Assembly: GCA_963817525.1 (NCBI GenBank)
Contig: CAWFOU010000001.1
Coordinates: 480,001-544,000, forward strand
Direction of reading: 5' to 3'
Source: an uncultured archaeon
GTDB lineage: Archaea; Thermoproteota; Nitrososphaeria; Nitrososphaerales; Gagatemarchaeaceae
Length of the DNA: 64,000 bases
Part shown: piece after piece, positions 6,089 through 28,571 of the stretch
How the letters are laid out: every line of letters begins with the position of its first letter
Position numbering within the stretch: position 1 is the first letter of the stretch
Position numbers and translations under genes: made by a program
The notes under the pieces: model-generated
The model's input: only the letters and a program-made list of their open reading frames with translations
The model's database searches: none
Told to the model about the DNA's origin: nothing

Positions 6089-6216
6089 GTTCCTCAAGCC
6101 CTGTCACAGAGGATAAAAGCCCCATGAATATGTAGCCTGAACGGGCGCTTCATCAGCCGTAAATAGATGACGAATCACGCACAAAACTGGAGTCGGAATA
6201 TACAAATCCGGACAAA

Positions 6217-7406: not shown

Positions 7407-8207
7407 TCAGACAACGAAGACGAGAACGCTGAGGAGCAGCGGCACGAAAGTGACCACCCAGAGCAACTTGCTCCAGCGGAACACCTTAGCCCCGTCAAGG
7501 GGCATGATCGGCACCATGTTGAACGTAGCAAGGAAGAGGTTTACGGGGAATCCAATGAGCCCGATGTCGTAAACAATCCCAGTTCCTACTGTTCTTACAA
7601 GTAAGAAGATAATCGCTATCACGACGTTCGTTGCGGGGCCCGCCAGCGAGATGATTCCGTACTGCCTGACGCTGACGTTGTTCCCCGAAATGTAGGTCGC
7701 CCCGGGAGCCGCAAAGATGAACCCGAGCGTGGAGGTGATGAGCGCCAGGACGATTCCCATCACCCAAATCCGGAACTCCGCCCAGTATCCATATCTCTCC
7801 GCCGTGAACTTGTGCATCAGCTCGTGGAGGACGAACCCGCTACCAACCGCAACGAACGAGACCACAAATAACAGCACAAGGCCGCCTGCCCCGAACACCG
7901 CGCCACCCAGTAGCCCGCCGCTATACGCGATCGTGAACGCAAGAGCGAGGGCTGCCCAAGCGACAAGGATGTCCCTGACTTCCTTTTGGGAGAAGAGGTA
8001 CGGGCTGCCAGGGGTGTGGCTCGAAGTGCCCGAGTAGATTGACCCGTCCCAAGACCGCGTAGTTGCTGGGTTCGCGACGATCCTCCTGGTCAGGTCCCCC
8101 CTGCACGCGTGCGCCTCGGGCAAGCGGTGCTCCGCGCAGAAGGTCCCCCCGCAGTAGTTGCAGGTGAAGGGAAGGTCTTCCTCCTTTCCGCAAAAGTCGC
8201 ACTTCAA
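7407..8207 (-). CDS. AN1-type zinc finger fused to M50 (site-2) membrane metalloprotease
   Basis: CDFC-CNYC-CAEHRLPEAHAC; HELMH; AGPATN; FNMVPIMPLDG. Confidence 0.9.
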   Translation of the reverse strand: MKCDFCGKEEDLPFTCNYCGGTFCAEHRLPEAHACRGDLTRRIVANPATTRSWDGSIYSGTSSHTPGSPYLFSQKEVRDILVAWAALALAFTIAYSGGLLGGAVFGAGGLVLLFVVSFVAVGSGFVLHELMHKFTAERYGYWAEFRIWVMGIVLALITSTLGFIFAAPGATYISGNNVSVRQYGIISLAGPATNVVIAIIFLLVRTVGTGIVYDIGLIGFPVNLFLATFNMVPIMPLDGAKVFRWSKLLWVVTFVPLLLSVLVFVV

Positions 8208-9835: not shown

Positions 9836-12800
9836 CTATGTGTGCTGGAACGTCATGAAGACGGCGTTCACATAGTCCGTGACCTCGATCGTATAGTAGC
9901 CCGCTGTGGCCGTCGGGACCGAGAAGGTGACGCCCGACGGGATATTGCCCGACGCGGTCGTAGTGAAGGTGGCCAGCGTCGTCATCTGTCCTTCCGAGTT
10001 TATCCAGCCTATTATCGCAGTGGAGCTGGCGTCGAAGTCGCACGGGGCCGTGCAGCTCACGGTGACCGTGGCTCCTGTCGAGCCCGCCGTCGGGGTCGTG
10101 TAGGCGTTTGACTCGGTGATTATACCATACGGGTAGGGGACCGTCTCTCCCATGAGGGTCCCGTCGCTGAATATGCCTGTGAGGGCGAAGTACGCCTCGA
10201 AGGGCGTCCCGTAGTTGTTGCCGAACGGCTGGGTCGTGGAGCCGAGGGCAGCCGTGGCGGCGAAGTAGATGGTCGTCGGGACGTCGTAAGCGAGCGTCAG
10301 GAACTGGCCCGTGATCGAAGTATACGCGTTCACGGTCGTCGAGCCGGGGTTCAGCCCGTCGATGATGTAGTAGTGGGCCTGAATGTAGCCTAGGTCGTAC
10401 GTGTTGCTCTCCTTGGAGCCTATGGCTATCTCGCTCTGCGGCCAGAGGGTGAGCGCGCGATGCTGCGAGTCCACGTTGGTGAAGGTCGCCTCCCAGACCA
10501 GCACCGCGCTCGCGGGCACCCCCATGGTGGGGTAGCCGCCCACCTGGATGCCGCTCTGTGGGTCGAAGGGCGTGCTGAACGACATCGAGGCCTCCACCCA
10601 GGGGGACGAGGTGCCAAGAGTTATCGGTATTGTGTTCGCCGAGCCTCCGTCAGTGTTCGACGAGTCGTACTCGCTGCACCCCTCCACCGAGGTGCACGTG
10701 CCGCCGAGCGTGAACCCGCTCCCGGCGGTGAAGGAGTTTGAACCGGCGATGCCCTCGGCGTTCCCGACGATGAACGAGTCGGTGGAGGGGGTGTAGGCGG
10801 TGACCGCGGCGCCCGTCGAACTCGTGGAGGAGCTTCCTGTCGACGACAGAAAGTTCGACGTTGTGTACCCGTTGATCTCGTAGATCGAGACGGAGCCGGC
10901 CACCGTAGAGCCGAACGCCGTCGTTATCGTGTCGGCGCCCGAGGTTGCGGCCGTGGCGTACCAGATGTACGAGTAGTAGTTGGTGACGATGGGGGAAAAG
11001 ACCACTGCCGCTTCGACCCAGGGTTCGGAGGGGCTGATGGACATCGGGACTGTGGTGGCCGTCCCCACGCCCGTCTGGTACTCCCCGCAACCGGTGACCG
11101 AGCTGCACGTCCCAGAGAGTGTGTAGCCGGTGCCCGCAGTGTAGACCGTGGAAGTAGTCTCCGCGTTACCGATCACCACGGAACCAGTGGTGGGGGTGAT
11201 CGACGTGACAGAAGCCGTCGACTGGCGCTCGTCGTGGAGCTCCCGGTGGAAGTGAGGAGGCCGGTCGGGGTCACCCCGCTTATCTCGTATATCGAAACAG
11301 CGCCTGCGACCGTAGAGCCGAACGAGGCCGTTATCGTATCGGCGCCAGAGCTTCCAGCGGTCGCGTAGTAGATGTACGAGTAGTACGTGTTGGTCGCGAG
11401 CGGCGTGAAGGACAGCGCGGCCTCCACCCACGGCTTCGACGCGCTCATCGTGAACGGGGTCGTGGTCGCCGAGCCCAGACCCAACTCGTACTCGCTGCAC
11501 CCCCCTGATGCGTCGCTTGCGTCGCAGCCCCCGCTCCCCGAGGCCACCGTGGTGTAGCCGCTGCCCACCGTGTACGTTGTCGTTGCAGCCCCCGTCTCCA
11601 CGTTGCCCACGACGAAGGAGTTCGAGTTAGGGGTGAACGAGCCCACGCTGGCCGCCGTCGAGCCGGCGGAGGAACTGCCCGTCGAGGAGAGAAGGCCAGA
11701 CGTCGAGTAGCCGGTGATCTCGTAAATGGATACTGAGCCTGACACTGCTCTGTTGAAGGTCGCCGTTATCGTGTTGGCGCCCGAGCTCGCCGCGGTGGCG
11801 TACCAGATGTAGGAATAGTAACGGGGGCCCGGACCCGAACGATATCGCCGATTCGACCCAGGACGGTGACGTCCCAAGGTTGGTCGAAACGGTCGTGGAG
11901 CCAGACGAGCCGGACTCGTACTCGCTGCACCCGTACACGTTGGTGCACGTCCCCACTAGGGTATAGCCCCCTCCGTTGCTGAAAGTCGTCGAGCCCGCAT
12001 CGGTCTCCGTGTTGCCGATGACCACGGAATTAGCGACTGGAGTGAAGGAGGTGACAGTCGCCGTGTTCGACCCGCCGCTCGAGCTGCCCGTGGAGGTTAG
12101 CAACCCAGCCGCGGTCGCCCCGCTGATCTCGTATATCGAGACCGAGCCGGTCACGGAGGAGCCGAAGGAGGCCGTGATCGTGTCCGAGCCAGAGCTAAGC
12201 GCGTTGGCGTACCAGACGTATGAGTAGTACGTGACCGAGGCGACCGTGACGGAGTTGGAGACCCCGAGGACGAAGGCGTCGCCGAGCGTGTCAGTGGGGG
12301 TCGACGGAGCAGCGACTCCATACCACCCTAGGCCGAAGACCAGCAAGTTCCCCTCGGTCACCGCGGAAGAGTAGCCCAAGCCGCACGAAGACGAGTTGCA
12401 GTTCGACGCGTATTTGTGCTGGACGACCGTGGGCGTGCCAGCGCTCCCAGAGACGGACTGCGATGCCCCAATGGAGTAGGCATCGCCGAGGGTGTCAGTC
12501 ACCGTGGGGACGCCGCTCCCAGAGGACGTGCTGCCCAGCGAGGTCGATGGCATCACGCCGCTTGGCGGGTAGGCCCACGCTCGCATGAAGTTGTAGTATA
12601 TCGTGACCGAGTAGCCGTTCGAGGTGTATGATATCTGTCCTAGGTACAGGTGCGTGGCGCTGCTCATCGGGTTGCTGGTGACAGTGCCCGAGTCTCCCCC
12701 GGTCGCCGAGTAGAGCTGTGGCGCTATGTACGCGCTCCACGATGACGCGCCGGAGCCCGTGTAGGTCAAGGTGGCGTACAGCCAGCTCGAAGTGGCCGTA

Positions 12801-14689
12801 CCAGCTGCATTGGTGTCTTCTGTCGCCGTGCCGCCGCTGATGTAGTCTTGGTCGAAGTAGGCTTCACCGTACCCGCAGTTTCCGCTGATCGCGTCGTTGA
12901 CGCTGGATGCCGCCACGTTGTTGGCCAGTCCGACCGCCCCGGTGTCCGTACCCGTGTACGGGGAGTTCTCCGTGCACCCAGGGGACGAGAAGCTCGTCTC
13001 GGCGACAAGGCCGGCGTTGCTCATCGCCGTAGCGAAGACGAACGCGGGATTCGCCCCGTTGTAGCCAGTCAGCTTCAGAGCGTTGATGGTGGTTCCTCCC
13101 GGCCCGCCCACGCCCGTAGACTGCGAGAGCGTGTACCCGCTGTAGATCGAGAAGCTCGAGGTCGCCGTGTTCCCGTCGAAGTACGCGGTGAAGACGTTGG
13201 CCCCGTTGTCGTACTGGGCGTAGGTGGCGCTGAGCTGCGGCGCCTCGCCCCAGTAGTTGCCGTCGAAGTTCCCTGAGGTCCCCTCGAAGACCATGTATAT
13301 CGTGAGCGTCCCTCCGCTCGCCCCGATCGACAAGGTCAGCTTGACCCACGCCGTGGCCGAGGTCGATGTGGACCCGGCCGAACTGCACGTGTTCGAACAG
13401 GACTCCAACCAAGAGTAGAGAGGCGTGACGCATTGGCTGTCGGCACAGAACCTGACGTTGCCCAGGTTGGTCGCCTCGTAAGAGGAGTAGGTGGCCGGGT
13501 CCCACGTCACCATCTGCTGGAAGGGGTTCGGGGTGGCGGACGACTGGCTGTTGGTTATCGTTATCGGCACGTAGCTGTACTGTTGACTGGACGGCCAGCC
13601 GAGGCCGAGGACCAGCGTGTTGCCGGCAGTGACCGACGACGAGTACGCCAGCGAGCACGTCGAGGAGCTGCAGTCGGAGAGATACCTGTGCTGGACCACG
13701 GAGGGTGTGTTAGGGGTTATTGTCAAGGACTGCGACGCACCGAGAGTGAAAGTGTCCCCGCGGGTGTCGGTCGGGGCGGAAGGGGGGCTCTGGTTGGCCC
13801 ACCCGACGGCATACACCAGCGTGTGTCCCGCTGCGACGTTCGACGAGAAGGCCAGCCCGCAAGACACTGCGTTGCAGTTCGAGGTATACTTGTCCTGTAC
13901 CAGGGCGGGGGTCGAAGCTTCCGCCACCGATGACGAAACGCCTAGCTTGAACACGTCGCCGCGGGTGTCGGTGGGCACTCCCGAGGGCGGCGCGTTGCTT
14001 CCCCAGCCCACCGCGTCGACCAATATGTTCCCTGCCGTCACCGAGGAGGAGTATGCGAGTGCGCAGTTAGCTGAGTTGCAGTTGGCGACGTAGTTCTTCT
14101 GCACTAGAGAGGAGGCCTCAGGGAGCAGCTGCACCCACTTTAGGTTGTCGAGGTTGACCGACACGGCCTGGGTAGACCCGGTGTCGGAGGCCGGCTCGGG
14201 GTAGGTCTGAGTATAGGTGTTCCCGCGCGCCGTGAGCACCTTCAGGGTGTCCGTCGTCCCAGGAGTGTAGACATATCCGGTGTCGATGGTGGAAGACCCC
14301 TTGCCGGCATCGATTGTCTCCCACAGGGTGGGAGTGGAGTTGGTGCACCCGGACCCCGCCGGGAACCCGACCCCGTCGCACTTTAGCAGGGCGCCCGTCG
14401 AGGAGAGGACGAGGACTGCGGTCATGTTTACAGTGATCGAAGAGGTATCGTTTGCGAAGAACCCGACGTCTCCGTCGACCTCGAGAAGGGTGGTGACGGT
14501 GAGGCTCTCGGTCTGCCTTCCCTGGATCTTGTTAGCCGCGGCGAGCAGGCTCGTGGAGTACGCCGCGTTCTGCGAGTTCACATAGATGTAGTATGACGTC
14601 CCGACCGAGAACATTATCGCGAATATGATGACGATGGCGACGATGCCCGCTATCCCTCGCCTGCCTTTCCCCCTGCGCCCCATCTTCAT
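9836..14689 (-). CDS. Giant pilin-headed adhesin 2 with DUF2341-like domain and nested repeats (frameshifts near 11830 and 11225)
   Basis: Class III-like signal peptide GKGRRG/IAGIVAIVIIF; three ORF pieces are collinear with the intact paralog 14720..20173 and end in the same VFMTFQHT. Confidence 0.85.
10863..11137. repeat. About 275-bp identical block shared with 15741..16015
   Basis: Direct comparison by eye found no mismatch. Confidence 0.85.
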
Positions 14690-14719: not shown

Positions 14720-17700
14720 CTACGTGTGCTGGAACGTCATGAAGACCGAGTTGGTGTAGTCGGTCACCACGATAGTGTAGTAGCCCGCCGTGGCCGTGGG
14801 GACCGAGAAGGTGACGCCCGAGGGTATGTTGCCCGACGCGGTCATCGTAAAGGTGGTCAATGCCGTCATCTGCCCCGCAGAGTTTATCCACCCGACCTCC
14901 CCCTTCGCGTTGTCGGTGAAGTCGCACGGCGAAGTGCAGCTCACCGTGACCGTAGCGCTGGTGGAGCCCACCGTAGGGGTAGTGTATGCGTTCGCGTCGG
15001 TGATTATTCCGTAGGGATACGGGATGGTCTCCCCGAACAATGTCCCGTCGCTCATTATGCCGGAGAGGGCGAAGTACGCCTCGAAGGGCGTGAGGACGTT
15101 GGTCCCGAACGCCTGGGTCGTGGAGCCGAGCGCCGCAGTGGAGGCGAAGTAGAGGGTCGTCGGGACGTTGTAAGCTAGCGTGATGAAGGCGCTGGTCGAA
15201 TATGCGTTCACGGTCGTCGACCCCGAGTTCAGCCCGGAGATGAGGTAGTAGTGGGCCTGTGTGTAATCGATGTCGAACCCGTCGAACTCGGCAGAGCCGA
15301 TTGCCATCTCTGTCTGCGGCCAGATCGTGATGGCCCTGTGCAGCGGGTCGACGTTTGTGAACGTCACCTCCCATACGATGTCGGCGCCGCTCGGCACTCC
15401 CATGGTGGGGTAGCCGCCCACCTGGATGCCGCTCTGAGGGTTGAAGGGCGTGCTGAACGACATCGAGGCTTCCACCCAGGGGCTCGAGACGCTCAAGGTG
15501 ATCGGGACGGTGTTTGCCGCGCCGCCGTCGGTATTCGACGAGTCGTACTCGCTGCACCCCTCCACCGAGGTACAGGTGCCTGCGATCGTGAACCCGGTCG
15601 ACGCCGTGTAGTGCGTGGTCGCCGATACGGCCTCAGCGTTCCCGACGATGAAGGAGTCTGTGGCTGGCGTGTAGGAGGTTACCGCAGCGGTCGTTGAGCC
15701 CGTGGACGAGCTGCCCGTCGATGAGAGCGCCCCCGAGGTCGTGTACCCGTTGATCTCGTAGATCGAGACGGAGCCGGCCACCGTAGAGCCGAACGCCGTC
15801 GTTATCGTGTCGGCGCCCGAGGTTGCGGCCGTGGCGTACCAGATGTACGAGTAGTAGTTGGTGACGATGGGGGAAAAGACCACTGCCGCTTCGACCCAGG
15901 GTTCGGAGGGGCTGATGGACATCGGGACTGTGGTGGCCGTCCCCACGCCCGTCTGGTACTCCCCGCAACCGGTGACCGAGCTGCACGTCCCAGAGAGTGT
16001 GTAGCCGGTGCCCGCCGTGTAGGTGGTAGAGGGGGTCTCGGAATTCCCTATCACCACCGAGCCGGCCAGGTTCGGAGTCACAGACGAGACAGAGGTGCTC
16101 GCCTGGGCGGACGATGAGCCGCCGGTCGAGGTGAGAAGCCCCGTCGCGGTCACCCCGCTTATCTCGTATATCGAGACGGAGCCCGCGACAGTGCTGCCGA
16201 AGGATGCGGAGATCGTGTCTGCGCCCGAGCTCCCCGCGGTCGCGTAGTAGATGTAGGAGTAATACGTGCTAGCGGGCAGAGGAGAGAAGGACAAGGCGAC
16301 ATCCACCCAGGGAGTCGAGGCGCTGAGCGTGAAGGGCGTGGTGGTGGCCGAGCCGAGCCCTGCCTCGTACTCGCCGCAACCCTGCACTGAGCTGCAGGTA
16401 CCGGAGAGGGTGTAGCCGCTGCCGACGGTGAAGGTGGTGGTCGCCGAGCCGGCCTCGACGTTGCCAACCACAAAAGAGTTGGAATTGGGTGTGAATGAGC
16501 CCACGCTCGCGGACGTCGAACCCGCAGACGAGCTCCCGGTTGAGGAGAGCGTTGCCGAGGTAGTCGCCCCGTTGACCTCGTAGATCGATACTGTGCCCTG
16601 CACCGGGACCGAGTAGGCCGCGGTTATCGTGTCCGCGCCCGAGCTCCCCGCGGTCGCGTAGTAGATGTAGGAGTAGTATGTTGTAGTCGAAGGCTCGAAA
16701 GTCATCGCGCTCTCGACCCATGTGGCAGACGGGCTCATCGACATCGAGACCGTCGTTGCAGAGCCTACCCCCGTCTCGTATTCGCCGCATCCGTAGACCG
16801 AGCTACAGGTGCCGGCGAGCGTATACCCCGAACCCGCCGTGAACGTCGTCGAGGCCGTCTCGGTGTCGCCGATGACCACAGAGCTGGAGCTCGGGGTGAT
16901 GGAGGAGACTGATGAAGTCGCCCCAGCCGTGGACGAGCTTCCAAACGATGTGAGCGCGGGCGCAACGCCGCTGATCTCGTATATGGATACCGAGGCCGTA
17001 ACCGTGGAGCCAAAGCTGGCGGTTATCGTGTCCGCCCCTGAGCTGGCCGCGGCGGCGTACCAGATGTAAGAGTAGTACGTCGTGGCCGCCGTGACTGCGT
17101 CGGTCACCTCCGCCCCGTACGTATTGCTGCCGCCGCACGAGGTGGCCAGGTTCGACTGGGTGGAGGTCACAGTATTGTAGGCAACATACTCGTCGATCGT
17201 GTAGCCGCCGTTGGATTCCACCGACGTCCAGCCGTTGGGATTGCCCCCGGCATAGGCCGAGCAGGCGTAGATCAGTATGTCGTTCGCGTTCGAGGTGGAC
17301 ATCGTCGTGGAGGGGTTGCTGGTCGCCGCGTCGGTCGCGGGGACCGAGCCGTTCGGGTCGAACGGGCTGGCCGTGTTGGCCCCGCTTATCCCGAAGACCG
17401 TCATCCAGACCTCCTCGTTAGCCGTTCCGGAGAGCGTCGCGGTTATCGTGGCGGAGCTAAGGGTGGAAGACGCCACCGCGTACCACTCGTCCACGTTCTG
17501 GTAGTACTGGGCGCCCTCCTCGACGGCGCCGGTCTCCCTGCTGTGCCAGGTGAGCCCCCCTCCGGACATGCTAGAGACCGTCGGGGGACTGGTCGGCTCC
17601 TGAGTGACCGGGCTTATGTACGCGATTATGATGTCGTTCGCATGGCTCGTCGTGAGGGTCGTGGCTATGGAAGCGGCGCTCCCCGACTCTGCGGAGTTAG

Positions 17701-20173
17701 AGCCGTCTATGGCCAAGGTGCCCGTGCCCCCTATCTGGACGGAGTTGGACGCCCCAAGGGTGAAAGTGTCTCCTAGCGTGTCGGTGGGCGTGGAGGGCGC
17801 GGTCGCTCCAAACCATCCAAGTCCAAAGACGAGCATGTTCCCCGCCGTGACGGAGGAAGAGTATGCCAGCCCGCACGAGGCCGAGTTGCAGTTCGAGGCG
17901 TATCTGTGCTGGACCAGCGCGGGCGTGGAGGCGCCACCCGCGACTGACGACGAAGCTCCTAGATTGAAGGTGTCCCCGAGCGTGTCGCTGAGGGTAGGTG
18001 CGGCGTTGCCCGCGGGGCTGCCGAAGGCGACCGAAGGCATGACGTCGCTAGGAGGATAGTACCTCGCCCGCATGAAGTTGTACTCTATGTCGACGGCCGA
18101 GCTTCCGCCGATCGAGCCCATGTAGACGTTGGTCGCTCCGCTGATCGGATTTGTGAGGGTGTCAGTGCCTGAATACCCTGTCCCGGCGCTTTGACCCGGC
18201 GTCCCATAGAGCGTTGGAGTGATCTGCGCGTAGAACGAGGTCTCGCTTGAGCCCGTGTATGTCAGGCTGCCGTATAGCCAGGTCCCCGTGGCTGGCGATG
18301 CCCCGGCGCCGTTCGTGGGCTCGGTCATCGCACTGGACGTGTCACTGGCTTGGTAGAAGTAGTCGCTCCCGAACCCCTCACCGTAGGCGATTCCGTTGGT
18401 GATGCTGTTTGCAGATGCCGAGTTCACCAGCCCGCCGACGCCAGTGCCGTCGTTCGTGTCAGCGGCGAGGGCGTAGCTCGACTCCACTATCAGGCCCGTG
18501 TTGCTGAGGGCGGTATTGAACGAGAAGAAGGGGTCGTGAGCCGCTGGGTTGTTGGTTATCGCGATAACGTTGATCGTCCCGCCCGTGGGGCCTGTAACGC
18601 CTGTCACCTGTGCCAGTGTGAGGCCCGTATACAGAGTAAAGTCACCGGTCGCAGTGTCGCCGTTGAAGTAAGCGGCGAAGACGTTCGCCCCGTTGTCGTA
18701 TTGTGCATACGTAGAGGATAGCTGAGGCGCCTCGCCCCAGTAGTTGCCGTCGAACTGAGTGGACGTGGACTTGAAGACCATGTAAATCGTGAGCGTGCCT
18801 CCGTTTGCAGCTATCGCCGATGTGAGCTTGACCCATGCCGTGGCGGACGTCGACGCAGATCCGGCGGAGCTGCAGGTGCTAGAGCACGACTCGAGCCAAG
18901 CGTCCAACGGAGTGTTGCAGACTGTGTCCGCGCAGAAGCGGACGTTCCCGAGATTCGTCGCCTCATACGCAGAGTAGGTCGCGGGGTCCCACGTGACCAT
19001 CTGCTGGAAGGCGTTCGGGGTGGCGGACGCCTGGTTGTTCGTGATGGTGATGGGGATGTATTCGTAGAGCGTGCTCGAGTACCACCCGAGTCCGTCCACC
19101 AATGTGTTTGCCGCAGTGACAGACGAGGTGTATGCCAACGCGCACGTTGCCGAGTTGCAGTTTGAGAGGTACTTTTGCTGGACTATCGAGGGGTTTGCGG
19201 CACCCACCGTGACGGAATTTGAGGCGCCGAGCGTGAACGAGTCGCCGCGTGTGTCGGTGGGCGCCGAGGGCGCAGCCTGGTTAGCCCACCCCACCGCGTA
19301 GACGAGCTCGTGCCCCGCGGTTACAGACGAGGTGAAGGCCAGCCCGCATGTCGCCGCGTTGCAGTTAGAGGTGTACTTGTCCTGGACCAGTGCGGGCGAG
19401 GCGGAGATCGCCACGGAAGAGGAAGCGCCGAGGCTGAAGAGGTCGCCACGCGTGTCTGTCGGCACGCCCGCGGGCGGGGCGTTGTTGGCCCACCCTTCAG
19501 CATCGACCAGGATGTTCCCCGCCGTGACCGAGGAGGAGTATGCGAGGGCGCAGTTCGCAGAGTTGCAGTTGGCGACGTAGTTCTTCTGCACCAGGGAGGA
19601 TGCCTCGGGGACCAGCTGGATCCACCTCAGGTTGTCTAGGTTCACCGTCACCGACTGGCTGGACCCGGACTGGGACGCTGGCTCCGGGTAGCTCGCGGCA
19701 TAGTTGTTGCCGCGCGCCGTGAGCACCTTCACCGTGTCGGTCGTGCCCGCGACATAGACGTATCCGGTGTCGAAGGTGCCAGACCCGTCACCCGCGTTCA
19801 CTACCGCCCATAGCGAGGGCGTCGAGTTGCCGCAGCCCGCCCCGGCCGGGAAGCCGATCCCGTCGCACTTTAGCAGGGCGCCCGTCGATGAGATGACGAG
19901 GACCGCCGTCATGTTGACCGTCACCGAAGACGTGTTGTTGACGTAGAAGCCCACGTCCCCGTCCGATTCTAGGGTCGTGGTGACCGAGAGGCTCTCCTGG
20001 AGGGTACCCTGGACCTTGTTGGTCGCTTTGAGGAGGCTCGAGACGTAGCTCGCGTTCTCAGAGCCGATGAAGATGAAGTAGGAAGTCCCGACGGTGAAGA
20101 GGATGGCGAACATGATTACCGTGGCAACGATGCCTGCGATGGCCCTCCTGGAGGTGCGCCTCTCGAACTTCAA
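14720..20173 (-). CDS. Giant pilin-headed adhesin 1 (1817 aa) with DUF2341-like domain and nested repeats
   Basis: RRTSRRA/IAGIVATVIMF class III-like signal peptide; VKVLTARGN pilin-domain motif; YIPITITN..NVRF..WLES..AWVKL..TIYM (DUF2341-like); 4+4 half repeats. Confidence 0.88.
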   Translation of the reverse strand: MKFERRTSRRAIAGIVATVIMFAILFTVGTSYFIFIGSENASYVSSLLKATNKVQGTLQESLSVTTTLESDGDVGFYVNNTSSVTVNMTAVLVISSTGALLKCDGIGFPAGAGCGNSTPSLWAVVNAGDGSGTFDTGYVYVAGTTDTVKVLTARGNNYAASYPEPASQSGSSQSVTVNLDNLRWIQLVPEASSLVQKNYVANCNSANCALAYSSSVTAGNILVDAEGWANNAPPAGVPTDTRGDLFSLGASSSVAISASPALVQDKYTSNCNAATCGLAFTSSVTAGHELVYAVGWANQAAPSAPTDTRGDSFTLGASNSVTVGAANPSIVQQKYLSNCNSATCALAYTSSVTAANTLVDGLGWYSSTLYEYIPITITNNQASATPNAFQQMVTWDPATYSAYEATNLGNVRFCADTVCNTPLDAWLESCSSTCSSAGSASTSATAWVKLTSAIAANGGTLTIYMVFKSTSTQFDGNYWGEAPQLSSTYAQYDNGANVFAAYFNGDTATGDFTLYTGLTLAQVTGVTGPTGGTINVIAITNNPAAHDPFFSFNTALSNTGLIVESSYALAADTNDGTGVGGLVNSASANSITNGIAYGEGFGSDYFYQASDTSSAMTEPTNGAGASPATGTWLYGSLTYTGSSETSFYAQITPTLYGTPGQSAGTGYSGTDTLTNPISGATNVYMGSIGGSSAVDIEYNFMRARYYPPSDVMPSVAFGSPAGNAAPTLSDTLGDTFNLGASSSVAGGASTPALVQHRYASNCNSASCGLAYSSSVTAGNMLVFGLGWFGATAPSTPTDTLGDTFTLGASNSVQIGGTGTLAIDGSNSAESGSAASIATTLTTSHANDIIIAYISPVTQEPTSPPTVSSMSGGGLTWHSRETGAVEEGAQYYQNVDEWYAVASSTLSSATITATLSGTANEEVWMTVFGISGANTASPFDPNGSVPATDAATSNPSTTMSTSNANDILIYACSAYAGGNPNGWTSVESNGGYTIDEYVAYNTVTSTQSNLATSCGGSNTYGAEVTDAVTAATTYYSYIWYAAAASSGADTITASFGSTVTASVSIYEISGVAPALTSFGSSSTAGATSSVSSITPSSSSVVIGDTETASTTFTAGSGYTLAGTCSSVYGCGEYETGVGSATTVSMSMSPSATWVESAMTFEPSTTTYYSYIYYATAGSSGADTITAAYSVPVQGTVSIYEVNGATTSATLSSTGSSSAGSTSASVGSFTPNSNSFVVGNVEAGSATTTFTVGSGYTLSGTCSSVQGCGEYEAGLGSATTTPFTLSASTPWVDVALSFSPLPASTYYSYIYYATAGSSGADTISASFGSTVAGSVSIYEISGVTATGLLTSTGGSSSAQASTSVSSVTPNLAGSVVIGNSETPSTTYTAGTGYTLSGTCSSVTGCGEYQTGVGTATTVPMSISPSEPWVEAAVVFSPIVTNYYSYIWYATAATSGADTITTAFGSTVAGSVSIYEINGYTTSGALSSTGSSSTGSTTAAVTSYTPATDSFIVGNAEAVSATTHYTASTGFTIAGTCTSVEGCSEYDSSNTDGGAANTVPITLSVSSPWVEASMSFSTPFNPQSGIQVGGYPTMGVPSGADIVWEVTFTNVDPLHRAITIWPQTEMAIGSAEFDGFDIDYTQAHYYLISGLNSGSTTVNAYSTSAFITLAYNVPTTLYFASTAALGSTTQAFGTNVLTPFEAYFALSGIMSDGTLFGETIPYPYGIITDANAYTTPTVGSTSATVTVSCTSPCDFTDNAKGEVGWINSAGQMTALTTFTMTASGNIPSGVTFSVPTATAGYYTIVVTDYTNSVFMTFQHT

Positions 20174-20181
20174 GGCTCAGC

Positions 20182-20793
20182 TCACCTCTGCTGCGAGAAC
20201 GTCACGGTGTTGCTGTATAGGCCTGTCACCACGACCGTGTAGGTCGTGCCCGAGCCCGCGACCCCGAAAGTCTGCCCGTACGAGGGGCAGTTGCTGGTGG
20301 TCGGGGGGATTGTAAGCGTGTAGGACTGCTGGTTGGTCGTCTTGACGTTGGTCATCGTCACAGAAGGCGACTCGTATCCCGAAGCAGCGGTCTTGCACTG
20401 CGAGGTGAGCGTGCTCCTGAGGTCGTAGACGTAGTCCGCTTTGCTCGCGCCGGTCCCGCTAGAGGTGTAGAGCAGGTTGATGAGACCGAGCGAATCGTAG
20501 AGCCTGACTGAGTAGAGCTGCTCTGTGAGGCTGCCCGTGTTATAGATCCAGAAGGTGATGGAATTGGTCGAGGTGGTAGCCCCGAAGTACATGGTGGTGA
20601 CCGTGAAGTGCTCACTCAGCATGTCGTTGGTGGCCACCGCGTTGCTGTTCAGGGCGCCCTCGCTGGCTCCCGCCTGGCTCTGCACAAATCCCCAGGCGGC
20701 GGCGCCCGCGACCAGGGTCATCGCGATGGCCAGCATGGCGCCGACTACTTCCGACGCAGCAACGCGCCCGCTGCGGCCACGAGAAAACTTCAA
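20182..20793 (-). CDS. Archaeal type IV (minor) pilin
   Basis: RSGRVA/ASEVVGAMLAIAMTLVAGAAAWGF pilin N-terminus; IYNTGS motif. Confidence 0.85.
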   Translation of the reverse strand: MKFSRGRSGRVAASEVVGAMLAIAMTLVAGAAAWGFVQSQAGASEGALNSNAVATNDMLSEHFTVTTMYFGATTSTNSITFWIYNTGSLTEQLYSVRLYDSLGLINLLYTSSGTGASKADYVYDLRSTLTSQCKTAASGYESPSVTMTNVKTTNQQSYTLTIPPTTSNCPSYGQTFGVAGSGTTYTVVVTGLYSNTVTFSQQR

Positions 20794-22496: not shown

Positions 22497-25130
22497 CTAC
22501 TCGAACGACGTGTCGAATTCCTGGTCGCCGTCGGCTTTGCCGCCTTTCCTCTTCTTGACCAGGAAGACTGCGGCCACGGCTCCACCGGCTCCTCCGACCG
22601 GGACGAGGAGGAGCGGGAACGTGGTCAGTTCTTGGGTTAGACCCTCGTTTGCCACCTTGTCCGCCTTGGCCGATGGCGGAGGGGCGCTTACCTGGACCGT
22701 GAAGTTAAGGGTCCGCGTGAGGAGCCCTCCAGGCGCGATCACCGCGGTGATCAGCACCGAACCAGCATGAGTCGGATGGAAGATCGCTACGGACGAGCCC
22801 TTCGCGTCGGTCGTGTCGTTGACTGCAGGCACCCCCGTCGGTTGGACGACTGTCGTCGACCTTGTGGACTTCACGCTCGTCGCAGACGCGGTGCTCGTCG
22901 TCGTCGTGGTTGATGAATTCGCGGGCTTCGGGGTGACTATTACAAGTCCGCCGCTGGAGGCTTTCCAATCGACCGCGGCCCCTGCCAGGGGCGACCCGTC
23001 GAGAGCGACGCTCACTGAAATGACCGACGTTTCGTTCGTGAGGATGCTCGCAGGACCTCCAGTCATTGTCTCCTCGCTGGGATAGGACAGGAAAGTGACC
23101 GCAAGCGAGGCCGTTGCAAGTCCTGGGGTGGAAAGCGTTAGAGTCGTCTCGCCCGGTACTTTGGGCTCGAGAGGTAAAGATGCATAGTCCTGCCCGACCC
23201 CTATGACTGCCGTGAGGACCTTCGAAATCACCGTGCTGTTGGACGAAGTAATCGTGATGTTCATCGGGGCTCTTGCTCGCGCTGGGCTGCCTGTTGCGTC
23301 CACAAGTTGGACTGCCATAAGAGGTAGTTGACGCGAAGTGCTCGGGCTAAACATGATCGTGTTGTCGTTCGGGGCGAATGCGGAAAGAGCGGACGGGGCA
23401 GGAATGACCGTGGAAAGATCCACAGAGGAGCTCGCGTATCCGCTGGTGAACGAGGAGACCAGCGCGGTCACATTCGCGGTTCCTTGCAAGATTCCGGCGG
23501 TCACGTTTACAACGGCAAACGTCTGACCCGCAGGGATTATGGCGTCGGAAACGCTAACAATTTGGTCTTGTGACGAAGAAAGACCTACAGGAATGTCGGA
23601 CGCGGCGACGGCGGGAGAGCCGGATGCATCCTCCAGCGAGAGTTCGAGGGCCGGATGCGTAGCTCCGTCTGCGGGCAGGGGGGTTGAGATAGCGCTGACA
23701 ATGACTTGCGAAGGCACGGCACCATAGGTTGCTAGAGAGGTCTCGGCCGGCAGGACGTTCTGCCCCGATGCGGTGAGAGTGGTCGTACCGACTTGGTAGG
23801 TCGACGTGAAGGTGACCGCCGCCCAGTTTTGGCCCATTGGAATTGCAAAATTGATGCTTGTGAAATTTCCAACGCCCGCCACCGAAGAAGTGAGAGTCAC
23901 CTCGGTCGGCCCGGTGGCGTTCACGGCGGGGGTACCCGCCGGATTCTCAAGTGAGACGACAACTGAGCTATAGGGACCGTGGTCAGCGAGGATAGGATTT
24001 GGTCCCGCGAAAATGTCAAGCTGGCACGTCGTCGCTCCCCCCGATGTGCACAAGGCAGGGCTCACAAAGGCAGGCGGGGAAATCGTGACGAGAGTCGAGC
24101 TTGATTGCAATCCAGGCGAACTTGCTGTGATGGTTGCACTTCCTGCCGCTGCCGATGTGACCGTGAAGGTGGCAAACGCCGAGATGCTACCTTCGGAGAT
24201 CGTGGCGGTCTCGTTTGCATCAACCACCGCTAAGTCGGAGCTTCTGATTTGGACCTGGATGTTGCGAGTCGCCAGGGTGGGGTTCCCGCCTGAGTCCGTC
24301 AGCGCCACGACCAGGCGACCTTCGCAGGAAGTGACTTCCGATGAGCAAGCTACCATGTCACCCGGTTGTGCCTCCAGCTTGAGTGCAAGGGAGGGAGACC
24401 CCAAGACCGAAATCGCCGCCGTTCCCGAAGCGAATCCGGGCGCGGAGGCGGTGATTAGTGCCGAGCCAGGGACAAAGCCACTCGTGTAGTTTATCTCTTC
24501 CAGATATTCCCCTTGTTTCATTGTAGTAGTTGCGGCGGTGACGTTAACGACGTTCGTGTTTGAGGAGTAAAGCGATATCGGGACGTCCGCAATAGCCTTC
24601 GCCGGTAGACCGACATCGTCTTCGAGCTGAAGAATCAGGTAGCCCGTGCTCGCTGCACTGGCTGGGACAGTGTCTGGTACCGCTTTTATCACCAGCTGCG
24701 TCGGATAGCCCACGGCAATCACGGTAGTCACGGAAGTGGAAGCAGTTATCAGACCCGTTGTCGTCGCGGTTACCGTCGTCACGCCAGCGGTGTGGGTCGT
24801 CGTGAAGTTGGCTATAGCGTACGCCTGGCCTGCCGGAATCTCGACATCTCCCGTGACAATTCCCACGTTCTCTTGCGACGAAGTAAGTGAAACATTGATG
24901 TCCGTGAGGGCGACGGTGGGTTCGCCGTTCGAACCTATCACTGACACAACGACCGCGGGGTAGGTGTTGTTATCCGCCGGAAGACTCGGCGGTATAGTTG
25001 ACATCGCGAGGGCGGCCGGCACCAGAGACTTCGAGGCCGCTGCGTGAGCGGCGTTCAATGGAAGCGCGCCGGCTATCGTAAGACCGAGGAGGAGGATGCC
25101 AATTCCAAGCGCACGAGTCTTGTCACGCAA
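22497..25130 (-). CDS. Cell-surface protein with tandem Ig-like (invasin/Big-1-like) repeats and C-terminal TM anchor
   Basis: Signal peptide; about 6 repeats of V.L.D..G.P..A..DI.V.L.SS....V..G...ITAS; Ser/Thr linker; TM followed by KKRK. Confidence 0.82.
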   Translation of the reverse strand: MRDKTRALGIGILLLGLTIAGALPLNAAHAAASKSLVPAALAMSTIPPSLPADNNTYPAVVVSVIGSNGEPTVALTDINVSLTSSQENVGIVTGDVEIPAGQAYAIANFTTTHTAGVTTVTATTTGLITASTSVTTVIAVGYPTQLVIKAVPDTVPASAASTGYLILQLEDDVGLPAKAIADVPISLYSSNTNVVNVTAATTTMKQGEYLEEINYTSGFVPGSALITASAPGFASGTAAISVLGSPSLALKLEAQPGDMVACSSEVTSCEGRLVVALTDSGGNPTLATRNIQVQIRSSDLAVVDANETATISEGSISAFATFTVTSAAAGSATITASSPGLQSSSTLVTISPPAFVSPALCTSGGATTCQLDIFAGPNPILADHGPYSSVVVSLENPAGTPAVNATGPTEVTLTSSVAGVGNFTSINFAIPMGQNWAAVTFTSTYQVGTTTLTASGQNVLPAETSLATYGAVPSQVIVSAISTPLPADGATHPALELSLEDASGSPAVAASDIPVGLSSSQDQIVSVSDAIIPAGQTFAVVNVTAGILQGTANVTALVSSFTSGYASSSVDLSTVIPAPSALSAFAPNDNTIMFSPSTSRQLPLMAVQLVDATGSPARARAPMNITITSSNSTVISKVLTAVIGVGQDYASLPLEPKVPGETTLTLSTPGLATASLAVTFLSYPSEETMTGGPASILTNETSVISVSVALDGSPLAGAAVDWKASSGGLVIVTPKPANSSTTTTTSTASATSVKSTRSTTVVQPTGVPAVNDTTDAKGSSVAIFHPTHAGSVLITAVIAPGGLLTRTLNFTVQVSAPPPSAKADKVANEGLTQELTTFPLLLVPVGGAGGAVAAVFLVKKRKGGKADGDQEFDTSFE

Positions 25131-25221: not shown

Positions 25222-26952
25222 CTAAATGCCGTGACCCAATATCGGGCCGGACAAGGCGACCATCATTGCGCCAACAATGACCAGCGCGAGCGAATGTTTG
25301 AAGCCGTCCGCCACGGTCCCGCCGCCCATCTTCCCCGCGACGAACCCGATGACCCAACCGTCGAAGATTGAAGCCGTCAGGAGCGACTGGACTGTGGCTG
25401 GCGTGATCGTGATGAGATTGGAAGCGGTCGCTGCTGTCTCGCCGGCGAACTTTATAGGAGTGGAAAGGAAGTACACCATCATAAAGGTCGTCATAACCAA
25501 CAGTATCGCTGCCATGTAAACCACGAAGACATACGACCTCAGCGCAGCCTTCTTGTCGGCCTCGATTTCGTTAACCTTCCTGGTGAAGTCGGCCATTTGA
25601 GAGAAGCTGTTCACCGTGCCGCCCCCGACGTCGACGACCTCGACCATCAGCGTGCCAATTGCCATCGTTATCCAGCTGTCGACGGACTCTGCAAACGTCT
25701 TGATGACCTTCACGATGGGTAGACCCCAAGAGATCTGCGACCCCATTGTCCTGATTGACTTGGATAGGCGGCCGTAGTTCTTCGATCCGAGCTGCTCTAT
25801 GCTCCCCTCCGGCGATAGGCCTATCTTTCGTCCCTCTGCCACGTCCCTTATGAAGTCAGGCAGCGCCTTTTCCAGGCCCGATCGTTCACGGGACTGCCTG
25901 AACGCGACGACCGAGGGGACTATCACAATCGAGGCAAGCGCAACGGATACGTGAATGCTGAGCTGCAGGGGGAGCGGGATCACGAACAAAGCCAGGCCGA
26001 CGGGCATGCAGGCCAACAGCACGTAGTATGGGCGTTTGTTGAAGTAGGGCTGCTTGGGCTGGGTCCCGTCTATTATGAAGATGAACAGGCCAGACAGGGC
26101 AGGCACGACCAAGTAGGAAAAGATGAAGAGGGTCTGCAGTCCCGAATTGTTGTGGGCAATCACACCCTCCAGCTGGAAGAGGCTGAAGAGCGTAATCCCC
26201 ATCACCGCGGTCACGGTCAGGTATGCCTCAGCCAAGGTTCCCACGGAGTCCGTGATGCGCCTGACTTTTGACGTACCCTGGTCGAGCGTCTCTTTGAGCT
26301 TGTTGTTGGTATAGTTCTTGACGTCTCCCCCTACTTTCAGGACGGTCGTGTAGCCGTAGAGAAACTCGGCGAACGACTTGTTCGGCATGTACTTTGCGGC
26401 GGTCTCGAAGGCGGTGATGGGGTCGGTTCCGAAGACGTCTATGTCGACTAGGATCCTCTTAGCTTCCTTGGCTGAGGCTGGGAAGACCTTCCCCATGCCG
26501 GATATCCTCCTCAGCGTGGAGATCGGAGAGACTCCTCCGCCGGAGAGGACGCCCAAGAAGCCGATTAGCATGGGCAGTTCGTTTTCCAAGGCCTCCGAGC
26601 GGGACCCTTGAGAGATCTTCGCTGCGTTCCAAACTATGACGAACACTATGGGCGGCGCGACAACGACCATGAACAAGAATATGATGTGTAGCATCAGGCC
26701 CAGGACTACACAAATCGCCACAGGGATGATCGAGAGGATGGTCGTGAAGAGAGCCAGCGACACGAGCCCTTCCGGGGTGATTCGCAGGTTGGACTTCAAT
26801 ATCTCGTCCCTCATCTGCGGGGATGAGGCTGCGATTTTCTTCCCCTGCTTTCCGAACATCTTGTAGGCGGTCGACGCCATCTTGTCAAAGAAGGTGAGCT
26901 TCGAGCCCTCTTTGGAGGGACGCGCCGTCTGGATGGTGGCGACTTGGCTCAA
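25222..26952 (-). CDS. Type II secretion F-family pilus platform protein (TadC/ArlJ-like, two domains)
   Basis: ENELPMLIGFL..SGGGVSP and EKALPDFIRDVAE T2SSF domains with multiple TMs; coupled to the ATPase. Confidence 0.9.
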   Translation of the reverse strand: MSQVATIQTARPSKEGSKLTFFDKMASTAYKMFGKQGKKIAASSPQMRDEILKSNLRITPEGLVSLALFTTILSIIPVAICVVLGLMLHIIFLFMVVVAPPIVFVIVWNAAKISQGSRSEALENELPMLIGFLGVLSGGGVSPISTLRRISGMGKVFPASAKEAKRILVDIDVFGTDPITAFETAAKYMPNKSFAEFLYGYTTVLKVGGDVKNYTNNKLKETLDQGTSKVRRITDSVGTLAEAYLTVTAVMGITLFSLFQLEGVIAHNNSGLQTLFIFSYLVVPALSGLFIFIIDGTQPKQPYFNKRPYYVLLACMPVGLALFVIPLPLQLSIHVSVALASIVIVPSVVAFRQSRERSGLEKALPDFIRDVAEGRKIGLSPEGSIEQLGSKNYGRLSKSIRTMGSQISWGLPIVKVIKTFAESVDSWITMAIGTLMVEVVDVGGGTVNSFSQMADFTRKVNEIEADKKAALRSYVFVVYMAAILLVMTTFMMVYFLSTPIKFAGETAATASNLITITPATVQSLLTASIFDGWVIGFVAGKMGGGTVADGFKHSLALVIVGAMMVALSGPILGHGI

Positions 26953-28571
26953 GGGTTGAACCCTTCGCGCATCTCCGCCTGCATCACGAGTCCGGCCTTG
27001 CCAAGGTCCTCGCGAGCGCGCTCAAAGATCTCGTTCGAGTGGGCCCTGTACTCCTCGAAGATGAGCGAGAGCTCCCTGAAGTTGCGTATCTCCCTCTGCT
27101 GCGCCCACCTGAGGACGATGCTCCTCCTTTCAATCTCGGACATCAACTCCGGTATCGTGGTGCCGGTATCCCTCGCGAGCCTAGCCAGCTTCACGCTCGT
27201 CTTCATCGGCGAAGCCAACTGCTTGTCGCTCCCGGGGTCCCACTTGAACATGCGCACGTAGCTGCCCACGCTGACGACCTCGTCTACCGAGAGGACGCGC
27301 CTCATGGTCCTAAAGCCGCCGCCCGCAATGGGGATTGCTATCCTTCTCACTGTGAACACAAGGTCTAGGAACGGAATGAAAGACGGAGGAACGTCCATAG
27401 GCTTAGAGGTGAGGCGTTGGATGGCTGAGGTGACGTCGTCCGCGTGGAGCGTGCAGAGGCCTCCGTGACCAGTGCTAATCGCCTGGAAGAGGACGTAGGC
27501 TTCTTCGCCCCTGACCTCTCCCACCACCAGGATGTCTGGTCTCATTCTCATGGTTGCCTTCACCAGCTGGAAAAGGCCTACCTCTCCGCTGGTATCGTCC
27601 CCTGTGCCGTAGCTCTCGCGCGAGACGAGCGCCGACCAGTTCTGATGGGCGATGTTGATCTCCTGGACTTCCTCGATTGTGACGATCTTAGAATTCATCC
27701 TCGTGAGCGTCAAGAGGGCGTTCAGCAGTGTCGTCTTGCCAGAGCCCGTGGACCCACAGACGATAGCCGTCGCCCGGTTCTCCATCAGGAGCCAGACGTA
27801 GGCTGCGAGGTTGTGGTCTATGACGTTGAGATTCATCATGTCGATGATGGTCAAGGGGTCCTCACGGAACTTCCTGATTGTGAGCGTGCCCCCGTATGGC
27901 GAGATCTCCCTCCTGTAGGTGGCGGCCAGACGATGCCTTCCGGGAAGCGTGCCCTGGACTATCGGGAAGGCAGTCGAGACGTGCTTTCCGGCCATGTGCG
28001 CGAGTCTGGCGATGGTGTTGTCCAGCTCTTCATCGTGGAGGAAGTTCAGGTTTGTCTCGATGTTGTCGTATCTCCTATGGAAGATGAAGAGGGGTTTGCC
28101 GACACCGTCCACCGTTATGTCCTCGATCTGAGTGTCGCGCATGACTCCGTCGATGACGCCGAACCCGACAAGGTCCCTCTCCGCAAAATAGTTGATCTTC
28201 GGCCACGAAAGCTGAGATGCCTTGATCGAATATTTCGTGACTAGCCGCTTTGCCTGCTCTAGGAAGTAGGCGCGAGGATCAATCTCCGACCTCGGGACGG
28301 TAAGCTCGCTCTCCAACGTCTCTAGAAGGTAGGTGTAGATTGACGCTTCCCTCTGGGACAGGACGACCTCGTCTACAAAGTATTTCTTCGTCCCGTTGCC
28401 CGGATCCTCGGCGATTACGGCATAGGCGAAAGGGGCGTTGAGCGGATACTTGTCAATCACCTTCCACGATGGCGAGAGAGGGGCCCCGACGAACGGATAG
28501 CGTGTGACTGTCTTAACCTGCTTGGACCCAGGAGCGTTCGGGCCCTTCTTTCCGAACGGTAGGCTAACCAA
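26949..28571 (-). CDS. Type IV pilus/type II secretion assembly ATPase (ArlI/TadA-like)
   Basis: GSTGSGKTT, TIEEVQE, MRMRPDILVVGEVRGEEA and TGHGGLCTLHA. Confidence 0.95.
   Translation of the reverse strand: MVSLPFGKKGPNAPGSKQVKTVTRYPFVGAPLSPSWKVIDKYPLNAPFAYAVIAEDPGNGTKKYFVDEVVLSQREASIYTYLLETLESELTVPRSEIDPRAYFLEQAKRLVTKYSIKASQLSWPKINYFAERDLVGFGVIDGVMRDTQIEDITVDGVGKPLFIFHRRYDNIETNLNFLHDEELDNTIARLAHMAGKHVSTAFPIVQGTLPGRHRLAATYRREISPYGGTLTIRKFREDPLTIIDMMNLNVIDHNLAAYVWLLMENRATAIVCGSTGSGKTTLLNALLTLTRMNSKIVTIEEVQEINIAHQNWSALVSRESYGTGDDTSGEVGLFQLVKATMRMRPDILVVGEVRGEEAYVLFQAISTGHGGLCTLHADDVTSAIQRLTSKPMDVPPSFIPFLDLVFTVRRIAIPIAGGGFRTMRRVLSVDEVVSVGSYVRMFKWDPGSDKQLASPMKTSVKLARLARDTGTTIPELMSEIERRSIVLRWAQQREIRNFRELSLIFEEYRAHSNEIFERAREDLGKAGLVMQAEMREGFNP

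Follow-up and report, generated by a model that had tools for sequence, protein, structure and literature searches.

We analysed a window of 64,000 nucleotides (nt) from an uncultured soil archaeon of the Gagatemarchaeaceae (order Nitrososphaerales; GenBank assembly GCA_963817525.1, contig CAWFOU010000001.1, positions 480,001 to 544,000 of the forward strand) and focused on one long gene, P0001, at window positions 14720..20173 of the minus (-) strand. P0001 quite probably encodes a very large surface protein that resembles a pilin and belongs to an archaeal locus for type IV pili, with a stack of copies of one domain nested inside each other. The initial annotation of this DNA had read the gene as four nested domains on a pilin head, from repeated N-terminal and C-terminal half domains (N-halves and C-halves). 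Homologue counts and the complex prediction of two of the four pairs support the nested architecture, and the stack is five copies deep.

Results

Repeat units and order of the protein

The open reading frame 14720-20173(-) encodes 1817 amino acids (aa) from a TTG start, and the frame is open throughout. The whole gene reads in the order H, N1, N2, N3a, D, N3b, N4, T, Ca, Cb, Cc, Cd, E, where H is a head resembling a pilin, N1 to N4 are N-halves, D is an insert within the third one, T is a tip, Ca to Cd are C-halves and E is a C-terminal domain. All coordinates given for the window refer to the minus strand. We considered whether P0001 could be a pseudogene or an artefact and rejected it: its reading frame is uninterrupted, and P0005, which comes from a different source, shares its length and plan at 92% identity.

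A motif scan placed the N-half starts at aa 194, 262, 330, and 753 (nt 19594, 19390, 19186, and 17917) and the C-half starts, with the motif YYSYI[WY]YA, at aa 1033, 1166, 1304, and 1440 (nt 17077, 16678, 16264, and 15856). Hidden Markov models (HMMs) made from the repeats found the same units, so the four halves of each kind lie where they had been reported. Identity within P0001 is far above chance, with 62-71% among the N units and 58-72% among the C units.

The outermost N-half, N1, covers aa 194-256 (19406..19594), and N2 follows at aa 262-323 (19205..19390). The third N-half is interrupted: the HMM finds its start, N3a, at aa 330-365 (19079..19186, model positions 1-38) and its resumption, N3b, at aa 722-746 (17936..18010, model positions 37-61). 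Between model positions 38 and 37 lies the 356-aa insert D, at aa 366-721 (18011..19078), in the GW...PTDT loop of N3. D resembles the Pfam family DUF2341 (PF10102). The match in P0001 is weak (E 0.11, 13.4 bits, gathering cut-off 23.4), and a precomputed PF10102 match falls on the homologous insert in 11 of the 49 proteins listed by a search with the paralog P0004. The split of N3 around D agrees with the DUF2341-like side branch that had been proposed there.

The innermost split N-half, N4, covers aa 753-814 (17732..17917), and the tip T fills aa 815-1032 (17078..17731). Ca (aa 1033-1160, 16694..17077), Cb (aa 1166-1297, 16283..16678), Cc (aa 1304-1434, 15872..16264), and Cd (aa 1440-1574, 15452..15856) come next, each found by motif and HMM, as were N1, N2, and N4. 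E closes the protein at aa 1576-1817 (14723..15448) and was delimited by HMM. Compared with a profile of the contiguous domain described below, the 218-aa tip aligned over 153 columns (hhalign probability 94.3%, E 1e-7). The tip is thus itself a whole copy of this domain, diverged but without interruption, and the stack has five copies, not the four levels of the initial annotation.

Within P0001, N4 is most like N3 (71%), whereas Ca is most like Cc (72%, vs. 59% to Cb). The history of the innermost unit is therefore not one of simple whole-unit copying. This pattern hints at swapping of halves between units or paralogs.

An N-half and a C-half form one domain

The uninterrupted form of the domain is found in the neighbouring paralog (9836..14689), which has four halves of each kind and D, lacks a tip and is read in three frame segments. 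In its stretch 11627-14689(-), the fourth N-half continues directly into a C-half at nt 12229, and we thus see the same uninterrupted domain of about 200 aa that had been described from this place. The intact counterpart of this paralog, P0007 (1617 aa), likewise has N4 contiguous with a C-half.

We used the contiguous stretch of the neighbouring paralog (201 aa, window 11825-12427(-)) as a query. With phmmer, it matched 183 representative proteins at E<=1e-3. The matched stretches ran unbroken from query residue 25 or earlier to residue 185 or later in 88 cases, in unrelated proteins, many of them of 200-350 aa. Pfam has no family for this unit, as judged from ten distant single-domain relatives, none of which gave a significant match.

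AlphaFold2 modelled the contiguous unit, from a 43-sequence alignment, as an all-beta domain with a predicted local distance difference test score (pLDDT) of 96.2 and a predicted template modelling score (pTM) of 0.92. In this model, the N/C boundary (residues 66/67) lies in the hairpin between strands 53-62 and 65-75. Structural matching of the model against 48,161 PDB representatives gave 50 rows that we assessed: 38 of them cover residues 1-7 to 99-112 and so cross the N/C boundary, 6 are C-terminal and 6 span more. The best Z was 7.0, so the ranges mark a lobe boundary and not homology. The unit is thus predicted to consist of two sandwich lobes, the first made of the N-half and the first ~36 residues of the C-half. 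Since both halves build the first lobe, a lone N-half would be an incomplete sandwich. Independent folding of the halves, which would have spoken against a nest, is not what the confident single-unit model indicates.

Solved structures offered no relative. Foldseek of the unit model against the PDB returned nothing at E<=1e-3, with a template modelling score (TM) of at most 0.31, and a profile search of PDB sequences gave an antibody light chain as its best hit, at the noise level (E 0.12). Among predicted structures, 50 phage proteins in BFVD matched the whole unit (E<=1e-3; highest TM 0.83), and seven of them bear the name 'minor tail protein'; the nearest ESM Atlas clusters, mainly viral, scored 0.95-0.96. 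The contiguous unit, a domain that lacks annotation, is frequent both in predicted proteins of tailed phages and in small proteins that bacteria secrete.

Which N-half pairs with which C-half

We predicted the complex of N1 and N2 (P0001 aa 190-327) with Cc and Cd (aa 1300-1577), each partner with its own alignment. The interaction prediction score from aligned errors (ipSAE) was 0.76, 0.77, and 0.78 (median 0.77), and the best of three controls scored 0.00. The mark used for ipSAE is reached by 58 of 80 solved complexes and by 2 of 110 mismatched pairs, counts that are rough for our case because we supplied our own alignments. The runs shared at least 98% of contacts (702-716 contacts), with partner pLDDT of at least 88.

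The 25 contacts of lowest error tell the pairs apart. Of these, 19 join Cc (1304-1311, 1334-1337) to N2 (290-296, 313-315), the other 6 join Cd (1445-1447, 1473) to N1 (220-224) and none runs crosswise. The predicted pairing, N2-Cc and N1-Cd, is nested, and the parallel pairing that would have spoken against the nest did not appear. The profile and Foldseek searches found no solved relative in the PDB from which the model could have taken this pairing.

For the innermost pair, N4 with Ca is supported by the contiguity of N4 and a C-half in the neighbouring paralog and in P0007, and by the predicted fold of that stretch as a single unit. We also modelled residues 185-1240 of P0004 (four N-halves, tip, four C-halves; 1056 residues, 41-row alignment) with AlphaFold2. 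The mean pLDDT was 85.0, the N-half blocks had pLDDT of 85-96, and one structural match to the model, discussed below, reaches from N4 to Ca across the tip.

The relationships among C units point to where units were added. In a quick tree made from an alignment of 100 C units, those at equal distance from the C-terminus tend to group together (15 label changes, against 52.8 on average after shuffling). In most proteins with three halves of each kind (3/3), the first C groups with the second C of proteins with four of each (4/4), so the extra unit of the 4/4 proteins would be the innermost pair.

Balanced halves among homologues

The search with P0004 returned 49 proteins. The annotated set comprised 51 (P0001-P0051), in which we located H, N, C, T, D, and E by HMM. 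We called a homologue complete when it had H at the start and E at the end, which was the case for 31. The number of N-halves equals that of C-halves in all 31: one protein is 2/2, 17 are 3/3, 12 are 4/4, and P0031 is 5/5. Moreover, the order of the halves fits balanced brackets. Unequal counts, a possible sign against the nest, appeared neither here nor in two further full proteins with other ends, which are also balanced: P0047 is 3/3, and P0035 reads N N C C N N C C followed by a whole copy.

An automatic bracket rule called 27 of the 31 balanced. P0008, P0013, and P0017 were settled by a more sensitive scan and P0031 by reading its sequence. The first scan had missed the tip of P0008; in P0017 the N3b segment had escaped notice, a whole copy inside D of P0013 had been counted as a C-half, and N3b of P0031 had been taken for an extra N-half. 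P0031 parses as N1 N2 N3a (N C) N3b (N C) C C C.

Of the remaining proteins of the set, 3 contain whole copies only and 15 are fragments. In the 10 N-terminal fragments, no prefix has more C-halves than N-halves. Two fragments carry longer runs of N-halves: P0015 has seven consecutive N-halves followed by C C N C, and P0018 has six followed by a tip, and is cut short after two C-halves. Judging from these two fragments, nests of more than five levels probably exist.

At the other end of the scale, a search for short relatives of the head found P0211, P0212, and P0214 (410-425 aa), in which E directly follows H, and P0208 (643 aa), which consists of H, one whole copy and E. The depth series thus runs from 0 (P0211, P0212, P0214) and 1 (P0208) through 2 (P0048) and 3 (P0045) to 4 and 5. 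Since relatives without a copy and with a single copy exist, the stack is an insertion at the H/E junction. The initial annotation had suggested that the whole stack may interrupt a basal domain, and this holds in part: relatives with the head joined directly to the C-terminal domain do exist.

Paralogs in the same genome

The window's genome has four paralogs of the family, two 4/4 in the window and one 4/4 and one 3/3 on contig C4. P0004, the 4/4 protein of contig C4, has a tip and no D, and its N3 is uninterrupted. The fourth paralog, L011, has three N-halves and three C-halves (contig C4, 6953-12510, minus strand) and one frame change near 10000-10087. In L011, two tip-like whole copies lie inside the DUF2341-like insert, which itself lies inside N3, an insertion within an insertion within the nest.

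In the window, the frame of the neighbouring paralog changes twice, around nt 11822 and around nt 11225. At both sites, almost identical contigs from soil metagenomes (of low depth, 2.5-3.4) differ from it, with two bases inserted behind 11822 and two deleted at 11225. By arithmetic, both together would give one continuous frame, as in the intact P0007, so the frame changes of the window may be assembly errors or strain variants. Small shares (0.09-0.17) of this paralog stretch occur in only three soil DNA runs, all of one study, and no RNA run is listed with it.

Type IV pilus locus

H covers aa 1-190 (19604..20173) and was delimited from the sequence and from the H model. It opens with basic residues that lead into a hydrophobic helix, RRAIAGIVATVIMFAILF, and by eye resembles an archaeal class III (prepilin) signal peptide. 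The pattern, judged by eye and not by a predictor, comprises the basic stretch, a small residue at the cleavage site and a hydrophobic helix of ~20 residues (...RRTSRRAIAGIVATVIMFAILFTVGTSYFIF). It is kept in the alignment consensus across homologues. Two homologues bear the label 'flagellin-like protein' in their source databases, and the source names of the homologues point to Nitrososphaerales / Thaumarchaeota. In Pfam and NCBIfam, P0001, P0002, and P0003 matched nothing significantly, and the weak DUF2341 match was the sole one for P0001.

Several genes upstream of P0001 on the same strand point to a type IV pilus system. Directly upstream lies a small pilin-like gene (20182..20793) of 203 aa, recognised from its sequence and without a Pfam match, which is a candidate major pilin. 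Further upstream are the platform protein T2SSF (25222..26952, Pfam E 1e-19) and the assembly ATPase T2SSE (26949..28571, Pfam E 5.5e-38). A candidate prepilin peptidase, a Peptidase_A24 homologue, is found elsewhere in the genome (C1:864188-864481, 27.5 bits, cut-off 26.5).

Between the platform gene and the pilin genes sits an 877-aa Big_1-like surface protein (22497-25130), with a signal peptide, Big_1-like repeats (E 2.7e-4, under the cut-off) and a C-terminal membrane anchor. On the other side of the two paralogs, the window encodes an FtsZ homologue (5030-6097; Tubulin E 7e-38, FtsZ_C E 8e-26) and, at 7407-8207, a protein in which Pfam finds both an AN1 zinc finger and an M50 peptidase domain.

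Discussion

A proposed self-nested stalk on a pilin-like head

Taking the results together, P0001 would follow the plan H-N1[N2[N3[N4[T]Ca]Cb]Cc]Cd-E, with five copies of an all-beta, two-lobed domain of ~200 aa. Every copy would be inserted in the same beta-hairpin of the next-outer copy. Each N-half would give three strands of the first sandwich lobe, and the matching C-half its remaining strands and the whole second lobe. Because the strands are split between N- and C-halves, the chain would go out via the four N-halves, make the tip and return via the four C-halves. On its way back, it would complete the shells from the inside out and end in E beside H, as in the relatives that have no stack. 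The DUF2341-like module D would be a side branch on the third shell, in the N3 loop. What the computation gives directly are the repeats, their balanced order, and, as predictions, how the contiguous unit folds and which halves touch in the nest. In addition, we infer the pairing of N3 with Cb, the shape of the stalk, assembly into a pilus and adhesion.

At the functional level, such a protein may form a rigid two-pass stalk with T at its far end, keeping the binding modules (T, D, and perhaps the units) away from the pilus. P0001 could be a minor or tip pilin that binds a surface ligand, as suggested by its size, the adjacent small pilin gene and the likeness of its unit to predicted phage tail proteins. 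The depth of the nest would set the length, and it would vary between paralogs and species. It is quite possible, although we stop short of calling it probable, that recursive self-insertion serves as a length-setting device. Each level would then add one unit to the rigid two-pass stalk while both chain ends stay together at the pilin base, and paralogs of one cell (with 3, 4, and 5 copies) would display different binding modules at different distances. Since an N-half is incomplete until its C-half is made, the stack would fold from the inside out, like a zipper.

Alternative explanations

The nest could be real in a protein that is not a pilus subunit, being membrane-anchored or associated with the surface layer (S-layer) and using its pilin-like signal peptide just for export. 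We consider this unlikely, if still worth weighing. Archaeal class III signal peptides occur on non-filament surface proteins too, the head has no match to pilin family models, and a subunit of 1817 aa cannot be a major pilin. However, the gene lies directly downstream of a small pilin-like gene, T2SSE and T2SSF on the same strand, and the short H-E relatives (410-425 aa) have the ordinary size of a pilin. A pilin-like protein of the pilus locus therefore stays our preferred reading.

Two other alternatives touch the nest itself. The C-halves that complete the N-halves might come from a second, adjacent molecule, with the halves serving for dimerisation or polymerisation in a way comparable to donor-strand exchange or 3D domain swapping. 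Our own complex prediction lends this some weight, since it has the halves joining in trans across a very extensive interface (702-716 contacts, 0.77 vs. 0.00 for the controls), and reciprocal exchange would likewise need balanced counts. It is nevertheless highly improbable: the linkers are short and the innermost unit is contiguous, both of which speak for closure in a single chain, the monomer model of P0004 is confident for all N-halves, and relatives with no copy or one copy keep H and E adjacent, an arrangement that an intramolecular nest preserves. Barely plausible, finally, is that N and C are two independent small tandem-repeat domains whose equal numbers come from the shared ancestry of the sampled genes. 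It is true that the kinship of the homologues makes their equal counts non-independent and that Pfam has no model for either part. Yet contiguous N+C is one widespread module, both halves build its first lobe, the predicted N-C interface is intimate, and the equality holds over about 11 architectures, P0031 and the N N C C N N C C pattern among them. We thus keep to the nest closed within a single chain.

Points that weigh against the proposed reading

Several results weigh against a self-nested pilus protein or call for caution. All structural evidence is prediction, and the nested reading is supported by prediction and comparison. Adhesion and the role as a minor pilin are argued from size, context and phage-tail likeness. 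Moreover, the head of P0001 matches no curated pilin model in Pfam, at E<=1, or in NCBIfam.

Regarding the pairing, N3 is assigned to Cb by elimination. The model of the full nest of P0004 reached a pTM of only 0.55, and its tip was modelled less well (blocks 57-87). We probed the pairing in that model via the ranges of its structural matches as well. A single row spans N4 to Ca across T (7pln_B, 136 residues aligned), it is weak (Z 4.8), and no row does so for the outer levels; the other rows correspond to the contiguous tip lobe (about 281-393) and to the second lobes of the C-halves. The tree of C units is quick and poorly resolved, with exceptions to its main pattern: P0023 has its first C placed with Ca, and in P0001 and P0012 it is Ca that falls inside the Cc clade.

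Finally, the homologues are related to one another, and the 31 balanced proteins amount to far fewer independent observations, about 11 distinct architectures, all of them balanced. Searching with the contiguous unit at E<=1e-10, we did not find the family in 150 other genomes of the order, and 1 of 400 other genomes of the class was positive (G224, with one contiguous copy). This rarity across the order and the class marks a narrow lineage feature. The 150 genomes without the family include two others of the same genus (88% and 95% complete), while the genome of the window has four paralogs.

Relevance

Insertion of domains is common as such, but in the literature searched, deep nests of a domain in its own copies were found only for cyanobacterial RNA polymerase, and the P0001 family would be a second, independent case. 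Close relatives within it cover depths from 0 to at least 5 in single steps, which allows the evolutionary path to be followed. The nesting unit is an unannotated domain that is common to phage tail proteins, and here it would be set in a pilus protein that is exported, a setting in which the length of a stalk and its resistance to pulling are plausibly important. For the annotation of other genomes, the family is a lesson that linear models can split one domain into two false 'repeat types'. It may also be a natural template for designers of two-pass stalks of adjustable length. If the length-setting nest is true, it would provide a natural test case for the folding of deeply interleaved chains after export.

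Comparison with known systems

The initial annotation knew of no described pilin or adhesin of this kind, and this claim has to be amended, since nested building is described for the pneumococcal adhesin RrgA (PMC5333627) and for the HABAS domains (PMC11515920, PMC13114784). In the part of PMC5333627 available to us, RrgA is a pilus tip adhesin in which D2 harbours D3, and D1 in turn D2/D3; the two parts of the split D2 come together again in trans. Like P0001, RrgA is described there as having stalk domains built from N- and C-terminal segments and a chain that goes out and back, with RrgA's binding domain at the far end. Unlike P0001, it has two levels, an isopeptide-stabilised stalk and a place in a sortase-linked Gram-positive pilus, and no type IV pilin head. 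The Pfam scan of P0001 gave no sorting motif or vWA domain, and we treat sortase-pilus adhesins like RrgA as an analogue only; we found no relation in sequence or fold between the two.

The available text of PMC11515920 and PMC13114784 describes HABAS domains recursively inserted into each other in cyanobacterial RNA polymerase. The latter is a survey that, in the part available, reports most domain insertions as single-level and a six-level nest in this enzyme. The Si3 region of its beta' subunit (HABAS, or sandwich-barrel hybrid motif) thus resembles the P0001 family in having, as far as these texts go, copies of a family nested in copies over multiple levels. However, Si3 has another fold and belongs to a cytoplasmic enzyme with a fixed role at the trigger loop, whereas the P0001 family has a 200-aa two-lobed sandwich in an exported pilin-like protein. 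In addition, insertion in the P0001 family is always at the same hairpin, and depth ranges from 0 to at least 5 among close relatives and paralogs of the same genome.

A census of archaeal type IV filament loci (PMC13705601) reports, in the portion we could consult, many loci with large adhesin-like proteins, made of serial Ig-like folds or PilY-like. The archaeal type IV pilins and adhesin-like proteins share with P0001 the class III-like N-terminus and a locus with ATPase and platform genes, and that portion of the census mentions no nested architecture for the adhesins. Searches of the literature on nested or recursive insertion combined with pilin, adhesin or pilus found no description of the P0001 family, with supplements outside the search.

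The closest relatives by fold are the phage 'minor tail proteins' and the small secreted bacterial proteins, which have the same fold as the P0001 unit and are detectably homologous to it. In these relatives, the domain is uninterrupted, usually single or in plain tandem, and has no recorded function. Nested insertion as such was already known; new in the P0001 family are its unit, the regular insertion at one and the same hairpin, a depth that varies in steps, and the pilin context.

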